Part shown: one piece after another, positions 470 through 50,513 of the stretch
Layout: each line of letters opens with the position of its first letter
Numbering within the stretch: the first letter of the stretch is position 1
Source: a virus
Virus record (IMG/VR): IMGVR_UViG_3300028653_000010
Reading direction: 5' to 3' (one strand)
Length of the DNA stretch: 64,000 bases
Position numbers and translations under genes: made by a program
The notes under the pieces: model-generated
Told to the model about the DNA's origin: nothing
Seen by the model: the letters and a program-made list of their open reading frames with translations, nothing else
Databases searched by the model: none

Positions 470-499
470 TATTACGCGCAGTGGTACTCGAAACTCAAC
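470..499 (-). promoter_or_regulatory. consensus leaderless promoter (TTGAGT-N17-GTAATA), minus-strand sense
   Basis: tattacgcgc...ctcaacc directly abuts start codon 463. Confidence 0.5.
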
Positions 500-506
500 C
501 AAAAGC

Positions 507-833
507 CTAAGAAAGTGAAAGGTGCTTGGTGGTCTGAGGGTTATTAGAGTCCTGAACGGTGACAACGCCAGTATCCTCGCTCACGGTGGTACTTTTGCTA
601 CCACAGATGTAAGTGGTCTTCTTTGAAGCCCCAAACCTATCCTCAAAGTCCCGGCGCAACCCGTCGAATCTGCCACCCACAACGATGGCTTGTCGCTCAC
701 TTGCGCACCCATCGGCGAAAGTTTCTGCCGCTTCCTTGTTGGGGAATACGGTGCGGGTCACCAGCGTATAGTCACCGGGGGTCCCATCATCCTTCCGGTC
801 TTCTCTACAGACCACGATGTATTCGATGTTCAT
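507..833 (-). CDS. hypothetical protein (108 aa)
   Basis: ORF track; it lies in a co-directional minus-strand gene chain. Confidence 0.4.
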   Translation of the reverse strand: MNIEYIVVCREDRKDDGTPGDYTLVTRTVFPNKEAAETFADGCASERQAIVVGGRFDGLRRDFEDRFGASKKTTYICGSKSTTVSEDTGVVTVQDSNNPQTTKHLSLS

Positions 834-1246
834 GCTGCCCTTCGATCTGCTTGGAACTTCTCAACTCCGATAGTCCACCAACAGAACCTAGCCTGGATAG
901 TCAACCAAGCATCACCATTGAAGATTATCCGAACGTCCATGATCTCTTCTGAGGTCTTGGCATTCCGGATCTTCTCCTGTAGCTTCTCGGTCATGACTTC
1001 CAAGCTGGAGCAATTCTCTTGCTCCATGAAGCGAATGACTCCCATGACCCACCAAGCATACCGGCTCTGAAGGAGATTCCAACTCTCATTGTTGAAGTAC
1101 CCGCGGATCTGCTCCACGATCTTGTCATTGTTTTTGGCTGCCTCAGCATCAGAGAACAACCGCCTGAGTCCAATTTCGTACATGTTAGTCCTCGTTATTA
1201 GAGTCTGAGTCATCCGTGAGGGCGGGAGTACTATTGATGCCGGCAT
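830..1246 (-). CDS. hypothetical protein (138 aa)
   Basis: ORF track; its stop overlaps the start of the downstream gene. Confidence 0.45.
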   Translation of the reverse strand: MPASIVLPPSRMTQTLITRTNMYEIGLRRLFSDAEAAKNNDKIVEQIRGYFNNESWNLLQSRYAWWVMGVIRFMEQENCSSLEVMTEKLQEKIRNAKTSEEIMDVRIIFNGDAWLTIQARFCWWTIGVEKFQADRRAA

Positions 1247-1766
1247 TGCGAAGCGTCATCAGGATCAACCGAGCCTCGCCCTCCGTCAGGCGACGAAAGT
1301 TAAGATTGATCTGAGATTCGTGGTGCTCGATGTTACCATAGAACTCAGGGTAGTTCTCTTTCATGGCCCTGAGGATCTTTTGGTGAGATCGTTGAGCCTT
1401 GTCTTTTTCCTTGTCCCGCTTGGCTACAGCAACGAGGGCGTCCCGGCGCTCTTTGACACTCGCTACTACCTTCTTGATCAGATCTTTGGTGTCAATCTTG
1501 AACCGTTTGGCGTGACAGAGACAACCCATGCCCGTATGGACCGACCTAAAGTCCACTTCGAGCTTACCTGAAGGGTTACGACTCCAAGTAGACCCAGAGT
1601 AAGGCTCACTGACACTGAGTATGTAGTAGGTGTACTCAGGAATCTTGATTCCTTCTGAGTTTTCACTCAACTCAGCTTTGATTCCTGCTGCAGTCAACGC
1701 AGCTAAGATCTGAGCATTGAGTTCGTGTGCTTGTTTCTCGAGTGCTTTGCTGCTGTACATTGCCAT
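1185..1766 (-). CDS. hypothetical protein (193 aa)
   Basis: ORF track; consensus promoter 1773-1801 sits 6 nt upstream of ATG 1766 (leaderless). Confidence 0.55.
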   Translation of the reverse strand: MAMYSSKALEKQAHELNAQILAALTAAGIKAELSENSEGIKIPEYTYYILSVSEPYSGSTWSRNPSGKLEVDFRSVHTGMGCLCHAKRFKIDTKDLIKKVVASVKERRDALVAVAKRDKEKDKAQRSHQKILRAMKENYPEFYGNIEHHESQINLNFRRLTEGEARLILMTLRNAGINSTPALTDDSDSNNED

Positions 1767-1772
1767 AGTAGC

Positions 1773-1801
1773 TATTACGCGTGAGGGTTAGGTTTCTCAA
1801 C
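1773..1801 (-). promoter_or_regulatory. consensus leaderless promoter
   Basis: gctattacgcgtgagggttaggtttctcaac, whose reverse complement is TTGAGA-N16-GTAATAG, followed by ATG. Confidence 0.55.
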
Positions 1802-1810
1802 AGAATCGTA

Positions 1811-2071
1811 CTAGGATGCGAAGATTGCTTCAGCTACGACCTTGGAGGTCTTCTGATCAACAATCTTGGCTTCGGAGATTTGCATCGGCCCCAGGTGTTC
1901 GTTGCAGCCACCACTCCGAGTTGACTCCTCGTACTTCGCGCAGAAGGATATGAGGTTGCTGTCAGTCGGCTGACCATGAACACTCAACTTCCATTCAATG
2001 CCCGTGTGGAACTGGGTCGGGTGAACAGTGGTAAAGTTCACTACGTAGCGGGGAGTTCTTGATGACGACAT
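1811..2071 (-). CDS. hypothetical protein (86 aa)
   Basis: ORF track; promoter 2078-2106 abuts the ATG. Confidence 0.5.
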   Translation of the reverse strand: MSSSRTPRYVVNFTTVHPTQFHTGIEWKLSVHGQPTDSNLISFCAKYEESTRSGGCNEHLGPMQISEAKIVDQKTSKVVAEAIFAS

Positions 2072-2077
2072 GCTCTT

Positions 2078-49264: not shown

Positions 49265-49278
49265 TGAAGATTCGGCAG

Positions 49279-49310
49279 TTAGCGAGTGAACTTGTTCCTC
49301 GCTTTAGGGG
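49279..49310 (-). promoter_or_regulatory. conserved hairpin element copy d (ttagcgagtgaacttgttcctcgctttagggg); 15 nt upstream of GTG 49264
   Basis: Same core hairpin. Confidence 0.4.
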
Positions 49311-49369
49311 TGGACCCCGTACATGACGGGTTGAAGGTCCCCTGATAAAAGTCTAGAATCGGTGGACGA

Positions 49370-49729
49370 TTGGTGTCAACTACTTCTCCAACACCGTTGA
49401 TACTCGCATACTCTGGAAAACCAGTCAACTACTTTCCATATAATTCGTCAATATCGGTGTACCGGATGGGCATGAAAGTCCTCCTCAACCTAATATCGAT
49501 CATCATTCTCATTCTTTGGATGATGCCCTGGACAAACGAGGCTGATACCCGACGTGCACTCAGGTACAGTGGTTTCACCGATATTCAGACCCGCGGGCAT
49601 GGTTTCTTTGCATGCATGAGCGATTGGTCGGCGACGGAGTTCGAGGCGACCAATCCAGTAGGTATGAAGCAGGTTCCCGGAGTTGTCTGTTGCGGGCTAT
49701 TTATGAAGGCCTGCACAGTTCGATGGTGA
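49370..49729 (+). CDS. hypothetical protein (119 aa)
   Basis: ORF track. Confidence 0.35.
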   Translation: MVSTTSPTPLILAYSGKPVNYFPYNSSISVYRMGMKVLLNLISIIILILWMMPWTNEADTRRALRYSGFTDIQTRGHGFFACMSDWSATEFEATNPVGMKQVPGVVCCGLFMKACTVRW

Positions 49730-49761
49730 TCTGAGGTAGTGCTGGTGTAACTGAGTGGACT

Positions 49762-50148
49762 ATGCCAGAAGATACTCCAAGTTCTACGGGGCCGGTTCTT
49801 CCAGTTATTGCCACCCTCGAAGTGATTGGGTTCAACGAGGCTCGTGAGATTGCTTCTGTGAAGGAACCTGGGTCGGATCGTGTTATTTACCTTGCTCCGG
49901 TGAGTGGCACCGCTCGGTCCTATATCGACGTGAGGACTTTAAGAGGACAGATCTTCAGGTTGCCAGTAGATGAGTCCATCCTTGACGCTATCTGTGGGGA
50001 CCTCACTCATGTCAAAGAAGAGTAGCCGAAAGATCAAGAACATCTTGATATTCAACAACGCGAGATAGATCTGCTCAGGGACACACTCGGGAAGTCCCGA
50101 GGTCCTCGGAGATTACTGTCCCGATACGAGCGCCCATGGGTGATCTAG
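49762..50148 (+). CDS. RYERPWVI-tail family member interrupted by an in-frame TAG (50023-50025); pseudogene or amber read-through
   Basis: Track ORF 49762..50025 (87 aa) continues in the same frame after TAG for 40 codons. The continuation ends in ...GPRRLLSRYERPWVI, the family tail, which is identical to the tail of 50851..51480. Confidence 0.35.
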
Positions 50149-50477
50149 GCTGCTCGTCGAACATAGATGATCTCTACTTGAGCCAGACGAGACTTCTTGG
50201 CTTGGGCGCGACCCACTCTAACCTTTCGGAGAGCCTTGTCTGGTTCTAGTCCAGCTCGAACCCACATCCAATACTTCCGAGAATCTTTGCAGTCTGAGAG
50301 TAGTTCTCGAATACGCTCGACCTCTGAGATTGGAACCCCTATAGTGAGTTGCTCCTCACTGTAACTCCTGAAGTGGAACGATCTGTCACTCAACTGAGCA
50401 AAGTCATTGAATGTCAGAGCATCCATGGGCATCTGATTAACTTCCTCTAGTGTTAGTTGGGCATCATTGTAGGTCAT
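50145..50477 (-). CDS. hypothetical protein (110 aa)
   Basis: ORF track; promoter 50484-50513 abuts the ATG. Confidence 0.45.
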   Translation of the reverse strand: MTYNDAQLTLEEVNQMPMDALTFNDFAQLSDRSFHFRSYSEEQLTIGVPISEVERIRELLSDCKDSRKYWMWVRAGLEPDKALRKVRVGRAQAKKSRLAQVEIIYVRRAA

Positions 50478-50483
50478 GCCCAG

Positions 50484-50513
50484 TATTACGAGCGAGGATA
50501 CTCAGATCTCAAC
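50484..50513 (-). promoter_or_regulatory. consensus leaderless promoter (variant CGAGCG)
   Basis: tattacgagcgaggatactcagatctcaac. Confidence 0.45.

Follow-up and report, generated by a model that had tools for sequence, protein, structure and literature searches.

Why does one nearly invariant block of about 35 bp stand directly before the start codons of so many genes, and which factor reads it? The question is raised by a 64,000-nucleotide stretch of the IMG/VR virus record IMGVR_UViG_3300028653_000010, called the window here, which was taken to be a fragment of a putative giant, uncultured bacteriophage. An initial annotation had described the block (renamed here as the class-1 motif) as a promoter giving leaderless mRNAs and had proposed a dedicated recognition factor, pointing to a sigma-70-family protein encoded by the open reading frame (ORF) at 19204-20004. 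The sequence is best explained by a class-1 promoter that gives leaderless mRNAs and is read by a probably phage-encoded alternative sigma factor, a combined statement that lies slightly on the probable side of even. Its first part, that class-1 is a promoter giving leaderless or near-leaderless mRNAs, is highly probable. For its second part, that the product of ORF 19204-20004 reads the motif, the chances appear evenly balanced.

Anatomy and conservation of the class-1 motif

With one mismatch at most, the class-1 core, CGCGCGTAATA, has 15 occurrences in the window; shuffles that preserve dinucleotides would give 0.21. Allowing up to two mismatches and inspecting the flanks for the whole architecture gave 19 copies, 18 on the minus strand and one on the plus strand (Table 1). 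A weight matrix built from the 19 sites scored all of them above 24 bits and every other position of the window at 8 bits or less. The 18 copies listed in the initial annotation were all recovered, none displaced by more than 1 nt (3229 became 3228, and 22712 became 22711). The coordinate 17818 listed for the plus-strand copy belongs to its −35 element, and its core lies at 17835-17845. The copy at 15044 (minus strand) was absent from that list.

The copies share the pattern g-TTGAGA-(t/a)c … (C)CTC-GCGCG-TAATA-N6-ATG. The upstream hexamer is TTGAGA or TTGAGT (TTGCTA at site 15044), and the spacer between this hexamer and TAATA measures 17 nt at 12 sites and 18 nt at the other 7. Two blocks 16-18 bp apart and facing a gene are the layout of sigma-70-family bipartite promoters; all 19 class-1 sites have it and face an ORF or a leader. 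At 16 of the 19 sites, ATG begins exactly 6 nt past TAATA; the initial annotation was right about close spacing, and its range of 5-9 nt proved too loose. These 16 sites always use ATG, always have a pyrimidine (C or T) directly before it, and all open ORFs, of 72-193 amino acids (the ORF at site 470 runs off the window). The exceptions are sites 31081 (ATG at 10 nt), 3228 (34-nt leader) and 21718 (about 125-nt leader). "At least 17" start-abutting genes thus comes down to 16 strictly abutting ones and a near-abutting one at 31081. The sequence signature of leaderless mRNAs, a −10-like signal about 10 bp before AUG with no room for a Shine-Dalgarno (SD) sequence, was present at 16/19 sites. 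Published work takes a TA-like signal some 10 bp ahead of the start codon as an in-silico criterion for leaderless genes (PMC3160421).

Most of the sites (17/19) lie below 31.2 kb. Upstream co-directional ORFs end from 64 nt before to 23 nt after the first −35 base, and several stop within the promoter, either in the TGA of the −35 hexamer or in the spacer. As ORFs end in or near the motif, the genes are packed head to tail with the motif at each junction. A terminator ahead of every class-1 promoter was considered and rejected, a strong upstream hairpin being present at site 15338 only. The −35 hexamers of the 17818 (plus) and 17778 (minus) sites are 11 bp apart.

These features would fit a bipartite promoter for a sigma-dependent RNA polymerase of the bacterial multisubunit type. 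TTGAGA would be the −35 element and GCGTAATA an 8-bp −10 element with a GC extension, with a conserved CTCGC further upstream. The polymerase would start on the purine 7 nt past TAATA, the A of ATG in most copies, and each small gene would form its own leaderless mRNA, translated by direct recognition of the 5'-AUG. The reader would probably not be the host housekeeping sigma factor but a group-3-like (sigma-28-type) factor, most likely the product of ORF 19204-20004.

Related uncultured viral and metagenome contigs contained more than 100 further class-1 copies. A motif scan of IMG/VR gave related viral contigs, one of 512 kb and the others of 12-98 kb, 70-85% identical to the window in patches at the nucleotide level. 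A scan of metagenomes added 36 contigs, which belong to about ten Joint Genome Institute (JGI) sample series. The pooled family sequence (431 kb) held 134 unique class-1 sites, 109 of them with N6-ATG, a fraction inflated in favour of the leaderless reading because three of the collection scans demanded N6-ATG. Relatives recovered without requiring ATG added 35 sites, 23 with N6-ATG. In the pool, a pyrimidine preceded ATG in 108/109 cases, and complete downstream ORFs had a median length of 101 amino acids. The 25 pooled sites without N6-ATG still had a pyrimidine six bases past TAATA, usually followed by a purine at the next position, and several continued as AAAGGAC(A/G)ATG or similar, that is, a short leader with an SD-like sequence. 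Because the sites with displaced ATG retain the pyrimidine-purine step, the fixed quantity is the distance from motif to step, which is the signature of a transcription start. In most class-1 genes, ATG appears to have been drawn onto this step.

Orthologous pairs retained the −35 and −10 blocks, and the spacer core, the N6 and the upstream flank diverged; high identity of the coding type began at ATG. This is the pattern that would be expected of a promoter with +1 at the first base of the start codon. The ortholog of site 3228 in a related locus (L007) was leadered too. The 17/18-bp bipartite block, the fixed N6, the pyrimidine at −1 with A at +1, the footprinting across relatives and the leadered exceptions with SD-like sequences are all consistent with the promoter and leaderless reading of the initial annotation.

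The initial annotation had named membership in a transposed repeat family as one result that would overturn a promoter. Repeat detection did place class-1 sites in direct-repeat families D2-D5, as a family of mobile repeats (like miniature inverted-repeat transposable elements, MITE, or repetitive extragenic palindromes, REP) or duplicated gene cassettes would require. The copies differ in their spacers and lack terminal inverted repeats, and their similarity ends at the motif borders. They stand at a fixed position and in a fixed orientation relative to ATG, and relatives retain them at orthologous positions. The 18 proteins downstream gave only self-hits in an all-against-all BLASTP comparison and matched no Pfam family; duplicated cassettes were rejected on this lack of paralogy. 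The repeat explanation is effectively refuted.

The motif might also be an operator for a phage DNA-binding regulator, or an RNA or translation signal before start codons, comparable to the start-associated sequences of cluster K mycobacteriophages. Conservation does enter the spacer (CTCGC at −20 to −16), a part rarely read by sigma factors, and CGCGCG is self-complementary. The two blocks with 17/18 spacing around a variable spacer core are promoter-like, six nucleotides cannot hold a ribosome-binding site, and the 3 window sites and about 25 pooled sites with displaced ATG keep the motif and the pyrimidine-purine step but not the distance to ATG. We therefore regard this explanation as very improbable.

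Candidate readers of the motif

The product of ORF 19204-20004 scored 47.7 bits against TIGR02937 of NCBIfam (cut-off 42.9), and a profile of it and 11 homologs matched FliA structures in PDB (E=1e-12), bearing out its assignment to the sigma-70 family. The Pfam region 2 and region 4 models each scored under their cut-offs. Its best subfamily match was FliA/WhiG, and its region 2 is FliA/WhiG-like. The family-invariant residues Y149, R153, R155, D160 and R170 align to Y76, R80, R82, D87 and R97 of Pseudomonas FliA; R80 of FliA is the arginine that replaces W434 in group 3 sigma factors. Only about 30 residues separate region 2 from region 4, which does not leave enough for a full region 3, and the N-terminus carries an additional helix-turn-helix (HTH). 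In an AlphaFold model from a 12-sequence alignment, the mean predicted local distance difference test score (pLDDT) was 57, and only region 2 and the N-terminal HTH exceeded 70. The protein is unchanged on 20 public contigs, the longest of 443 kb. A block GGAGTAATCCTTCTGTCCCGGGGTA lies upstream of its gene at 19162-19186 (plus strand) and is kept as GGTATTCCTTCTGTCCC(A/T)GGGTA in relatives whose sigma begins with GTG; it is neither class 1 nor clearly of the second class described below.

With the first A of TAATA taken as −11, T is nearly absent from position −7 (1/19 sites of the window, 7/134 of the pool), where G, C or A stands instead. In the alternative register, CGTAAT, with TAAT as the last four bases of the hexamer, −11 becomes G. 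The housekeeping (group 1) combination of A−11 and T−7 was thus found in neither register. The conserved bases instead reach upstream, with GCG at −15/−14/−13 and, more weakly, CTCGC at −20 to −16. Among the 19 window sites, G−15 was present in 18, C−14 in 19 and A−11 in 19, as in the extended −10 of the sigma-28 type. The −10 element of sigma-28 promoters is (−15)GCCGATAA(−8), whose GC pair is an extended −10 read by R97 (PMC12784957). In these promoters A−11 is flipped out; −7 is not, and it is not conserved either, as group 3 sigma factors have no region 1.2 (PMC12784957). The class-1 −10 block looks like such an 8-mer with a GC extension.

A distant relative provided a natural comparison. 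The IMG/VR contig 3300028654_000001 (512,571 bp; loci L084 = L035, and L046) encodes a sigma homolog (L084 10001-10684) that is 51% identical and has lost most of the N-terminal HTH. Its start-abutting motif reads tGGTGAGAtc-N6-CCTCAAACG-TA(A/G)TA-ctgagc-ATG, or in short GTGAGA-N17-(CAAACG)TA(A/G)TA-N6-ATG. The 17-bp spacing and the N6-ATG are those of the window; the first −35 base has changed from T to G and −15 from G to A, and TAGTA is frequent as the −10. In the full set of loci, the T-type −35 pairs with GCG-TAATA (119 sites; the window has this type only), and the G-type −35 pairs with ACG or another triplet and TAGTA or TAATA (14 sites, all in the 512-kb lineage). Housekeeping sigma specificity is nearly universal among bacteria; because both elements change together along the phage lineage, a factor evolving with the phage is the easier explanation. 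The dedicated factor of the initial annotation thus gains support from the missing T at −7, the GC at −15/−14 and this co-variation of motif and sigma. The 512-kb contig also holds a few sites of the TTGAGA/GCG type, which hints at two related promoter subclasses there. The N-terminal HTH of the sigma was considered as the reader of the CGCG block and found unsupported: two relatives with this HTH deleted have AAGCG/ATGCG sites, and positions −17/−16 vary within the window as well.

The motif was also sought in bacterial chromosomes. An exact 20-base pattern, scanned against one genome for each of 185,579 species, gave 3 matches, a number attainable by chance. All 3 were in Myxococcota-type metagenome-assembled genomes (MAGs), one in a Polyangiaceae MAG, where it precedes an ORF, and two in a 'delta proteobacterium' MAG. 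They also carried consensus bases that the pattern did not specify (CCCTC before GCGCG, g before TTGAGA, a pyrimidine before ATG). The two 'delta proteobacterium' matches abut the ATG of paralogous 322-amino-acid genes of the Phage_integrase (tyrosine-recombinase) family in island-like chromosomal contexts, one beside a transfer-messenger RNA (tmRNA) gene and a second integrase; Mrr and an SbcC-like gene are further neighbours in the island regions. No protein similarity was found between the MAG loci and the phage loci, a search of the 185,579 genomes with exact peptide patterns found no phage sigma homolog, and relatives of the MAG integrase in viral contigs were only generic tyrosine recombinases (25-36% identity). 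Resident islands may use the phage promoter to respond to infection.

Several points weigh against a phage-encoded sigma-28-type reader. For FliA/WhiG membership, TIGR02479 gave 53.4 bits against a cut-off of 189.6, with region 2 alone aligning. The elements TTGAGA and GCGTAATA are not the sigma-28 consensus (TAAA, GCCGATAA), and only 4/8 of the −10 positions are common. TTGAGA matches TTGACA at 5/6 positions with classical spacing, which leaves room for a housekeeping sigma. No recognisable early promoter was found at the sigma gene, and neither the class-1 motif nor the GGTGTA motif described below was present upstream of it. The co-variation could instead reflect a different host, and the chromosomal copies, in genomes where no phage sigma homolog was detected, can fit a host factor as reader.

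Some of these points would suit early promoters for the host housekeeping sigma (sigma-A/70), with the strong consensus reflecting selection for strength and the phage sigma serving another class, such as GGTGTA. T4 early promoters are a parallel for strong-consensus early phage promoters. The TTGAGA −35 element at 17/18 bp from TAATA is classical, the genes driven are small ORFans typical of early regions, and both the chromosomal copies and a sigma gene that itself lacks the class-1 motif agree with it. Against it, no register yields both A−11 and T−7, T follows TAATA in only 5% of sites, and a standard sigma-70 scan flagged only 2/12 class-1 sites between 14 and 32 kb, in a shifted register. 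The change of the most conserved −35 position from T to G in the 512-kb relative, together with the −10 changes, would be unexpected under near-universal specificity. We consider the housekeeping sigma an unlikely reader.

Promoters for a host alternative sigma (group 3 or extracytoplasmic function (ECF)-like), exploited by phage and genomic islands alike, would leave the phage sigma as a captured copy or as unrelated. The motif before integrase-family genes in MAG islands that share no protein similarity with the phage loci, and its high, regulon-like conservation, favour this idea. Chance could suffice for 3 matches in 185,579 species genomes, but the extra matching bases argue that they are real; no host sigma was identified, and the motif follows the phage lineage. 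Such a host factor seems less probable still than the housekeeping sigma. A phage-encoded, sigma-28-like reader is the explanation carried forward here.

A second start-proximal motif and Shine-Dalgarno use

According to the initial annotation, genes lacking the motif use a canonical SD sequence, so that two expression classes coexist. This did not hold: only about 15 of about 140 candidate starts in the window had an SD-like sequence within 18 nt upstream. The ribbon-helix-helix (RHH) gene at 9883, its example, does have a real AAGGAGG; its RHH identity was without Pfam support.

Instead, GGTGTA ranked first among the 4096 hexamers 8-14 nt before an ATG opening an ORF of at least 60 amino acids (25/49 of its occurrences), followed by the class-1 hexamer GCGTAA (17/32). 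GGTGTA sites have a pyrimidine-rich 4-mer upstream (YYYY), no −35 element and mostly a pyrimidine before ATG. They cluster at 31-41 kb and 49-61 kb, and GGTGTA-N8-14-ATG was found before 65 ORFs in relatives. GGTGTA possibly marks a second class of promoters, lacking a −35 element and giving leaders of 0-5 nt. A shifted SD sequence was rejected, since 8-14 nt from ATG is too far for the GGTG part, a distance limit reasoned from the anti-SD complement at the 16S 3' end.

Gene 2472-2765 is preceded by TTGAAA-N16-TAGTAT-N6-ATG at 2766-2799 (minus strand), a start-abutting site with a housekeeping-type −10 and T−7. It suggests that the leaderless design may be general here and not tied to a single sigma.

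Window features and comparison with known systems

Table 1. Coordinates of class-1 sites and related features. Class-1 sites are in the window unless a MAG locus is given.
Position	Strand	Feature	Gene or remark
461..498	-	class-1, TTGAGT-N18-TGCGCG-TAATA-cctaac-ATG	ORF off window start, at least 154 aa
1764..1800	-	class-1, spacer 17, N6-ATG	ORF 1185-1766, 193 aa; both blocks kept in related loci L007/L009
2069..2105	-	class-1, spacer 17, N6-ATG	ORF 1811-2071, 86 aa; stop codon of upstream ORF within spacer
2461..2497	-	class-1, CATGCG variant, N6-ATG	ORF 2092-2463, 123 aa
3221..3255	-	class-1, leadered; predicted start G 3221	34 nt with GAGGTGAG before ORF 2843-3193
7128..7165	-	class-1, spacer 18, N6-ATG	ORF 6708-7130, 140 aa
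15035..15071	-	class-1, weaker −35 TTGCTA, GGTGCG-TAATA, N6-ATG	ORF 14789-15037, 82 aa
15329..15365	-	class-1, N6-ATG	ORF 15065-15331, 88 aa
15375..15411	-	terminator-like hairpin, 17-bp stem and T-tract, −27.5 kcal/mol	ends just upstream of the −35 of the 15338 site
16553..16589	-	class-1, N6-ATG	ORF 16325-16555, 76 aa
17111..17147	-	class-1, N6-ATG	ORF 16628-17113, 161 aa
17769..17806	-	class-1, TTGAGT, N6-ATG	ORF 17529-17771, 80 aa; back-to-back with the plus-strand site
17818..17854	+	class-1, sole plus-strand site, N6-ATG	ORF 17852-18094, 80 aa
19204..20004	+	sigma-70-family protein, 266 aa; N-terminal HTH, region 2, region 4	candidate recognition factor
20223..20260	-	class-1, spacer 18, N6-ATG	ORF 20007-20225, 72 aa
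21711..21745	-	class-1, no abutting gene; predicted start G 21711	about 125-nt leader before ORF 21295-21585
22702..22739	-	class-1, CGTGCG, N6-ATG	ORF 22441-22704, 87 aa
29087..29123	-	class-1, GGTGCG, N6-ATG	ORF 28697-29089, 130 aa
31068..31109	-	class-1, ATG 10 nt past TAATA, predicted leader 3-4 nt	ORF 30495-31070, 191 aa
42661..42697	-	class-1, N6-ATG	ORF 42358-42663, 101 aa
50475..50512	-	class-1, CGCTCG, N6-ATG	ORF 50145-50477, 110 aa
31129, 31859, 32646, 34583, 35562, 36196, 38475, 39025, 39530, 49456, 49744, 57162, 57644, 60248	+	GGTGTA sites, examples	
20814, 24266, 41501, 50828, 51898, 55509, 60257	-	GGTGTA sites, examples	
L018 6168-7180	-	class-1 motif at MAG locus	
L019 3166-4169	+	class-1 motif at MAG locus	
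L017 7151-7188	+	class-1 motif at MAG locus	

Recognisable protein families were almost nil among the window proteins. No hallmark virion gene was identified among them, a tail-fibre-like domain in ORF 35040-35552 being the sole virion-related match. Megablast and tblastn searches against cultured-phage records found no close cultured relative, weak sigma matches excepted, and neither transfer RNA (tRNA) genes nor Rfam families were found in the window. Stop-codon reassignment was considered as the source of the many short ORFs and rejected, as no convincing signal was found.

An array like those of clustered regularly interspaced short palindromic repeats (CRISPR) occupies 45166-46478, with 19 copies of the 36-nt repeat CCTTCAAACCCCACCTACTCATAATCGGATCAACAC spaced 72-74 nt from start to start; towards the low-coordinate end the copies are degenerate. 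The adjoining ORF 47405-49264 (minus strand, 619 amino acids) matches Cas12u1/Cas12f models, and its C-terminal RuvC/zinc region matches the Cas12f1 chain 9i8y_A in PDB (E=4.9e-6). The array and the protein have the appearance of a compact type V system carried by the putative huge phage. ORF 43982-44734 (plus strand) belongs to the Thg1-like tRNA-His guanylyltransferase family (Pfam Thg1, E=1e-27, and Thg1C), which is unusual for a phage. Of the three genes at 10372-10740 (minus), 54082-54834 (plus) and 14098-14835 (plus), two are HU-like (Bac_DNA_binding), one of these encoding a long extension at the C-terminus, and the remaining one is an R2K-clade ATP-grasp gene.

A GT-rich stretch of about 450 nt without ORFs (20830-21290, minus strand) and the leader that follows the 21718 promoter (21586-21711, minus strand; about 125 nt) had no Rfam match and may be non-coding RNAs. 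Hairpins of the AGCGAGTGGTCGTAACCCTCGCTTT family (GC stem and T-run) lie at 8641-8665, 12835-12859, 49160-49184 and 49281-49305; two copies 36 kb apart are identical, and the hairpins look like shared intrinsic terminators. The exact 17-mer CAAGTACTTGATATTAC occurs at 29662-29678 (plus) and 56462-56478 (minus), upstream of a GIY-YIG gene (29703-30485) and of ORF 56193-56438. Related palindromes, AAGTACTT, precede ORFs 37187 and 54082.

Among known promoters, those of sigma-28 (FliA/WhiG, group 3; TAAA-N15-GCCGATAA) are similar in their 8-bp −10 element at about −15 to −8, which opens with GC and has A−11 and a free −7, and in the place of their −35 element, about −36 to −30; the phage sigma is FliA-like in region 2 and keeps the R80- and R97-type residues. 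They differ from class-1 in both consensus sequences. The phage sigma falls far under the FliA/WhiG cut-offs, has no room for a full region 3 and carries an extra HTH at its N-terminus. The class-1 targets are phage ORFans rather than flagellar genes, with transcripts predicted to start on ATG.

For most transcripts of the Thermus phages phiYS40 and Lalka27a, the first base is the A or G of the start codon, and a class-specific −10 consensus implies altered polymerase specificity. A logic of one promoter per gene is plausible in both these phages and the present family. The Thermus phages rely on the sigma-A holoenzyme of their host, which may be modified, and no −35 element is present in their middle and late promoters, whereas here a conserved −35 element goes with an encoded phage sigma, and the host, not a thermophile, is possibly Myxococcota-like. 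Long leaders are found in the jumbo phages AR9 and phiKZ. The phage sigma factors SPO1 gp28 and gp33/34 and T4 gp55 redirect the host core polymerase to many near-identical promoters that depart from the host consensus; they resemble the present case in having their own promoter set, but their mRNAs are leadered with SD sequences and their consensus is unrelated.

The TA-led leaderless genes of Actinobacteria, Deinococcus-Thermus and delta-proteobacteria likewise have a −10-like TA signal about 10 bp before the start and no SD sequence. Theirs is a degenerate TANNNT read by the housekeeping sigma, whereas the class-1 motif covers about 35 bp, is nearly invariant and lacks the final T. The start-associated sequences (SAS) of cluster K mycobacteriophages are 13-bp single blocks containing the ribosome-binding site. 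They too are conserved asymmetric motifs a few bases before many starts, but have no −35/−10 geometry. Phage-wide leaderless transcription (Thermus phages) and private promoter sets for phage sigma factors (SPO1, T4) are already known. What appears to be new is the combination of a near-invariant, sigma-28-like motif of about 35 bp, a conserved −35 element, the six-base gap, dozens of single-gene units and a co-varying phage sigma.

A wider picture can be drawn tentatively, and we hold it as doubtful. A family of huge phages (contigs of 443-512 kb) would run much of its genome on a private, co-evolving pair of sigma and promoter, with nearly all small genes as leaderless units of transcription and translation. 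Two start-abutting classes (TTGAGA…GCGTAATA-N6-ATG and GGTGTA-N8-14-ATG) would largely replace SD sequences, and islands of the presumed host would place the same promoter before recombinases to sense infection.

The sole genomic matches of the motif, in Myxococcota-type MAGs, may provide a clue to the host; leaderless genes are predicted to be abundant in only a few groups, delta-proteobacteria being one (about 16% in 8/33 genomes). The motif can serve as an annotation rule that fixes true start codons in these uncultured genomes. The sigma and its promoter may offer a compact orthogonal part for synthetic biology, and the co-varied natural pair (TTGAGA/GCG/TAATA versus GTGAGA/ACG/TAGTA) makes sigma specificity open to swap experiments. 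If the proposed reading is true, these phages would have a gene-expression design undescribed outside the Thermus phages, with dozens of single-gene leaderless units under a near-invariant promoter.

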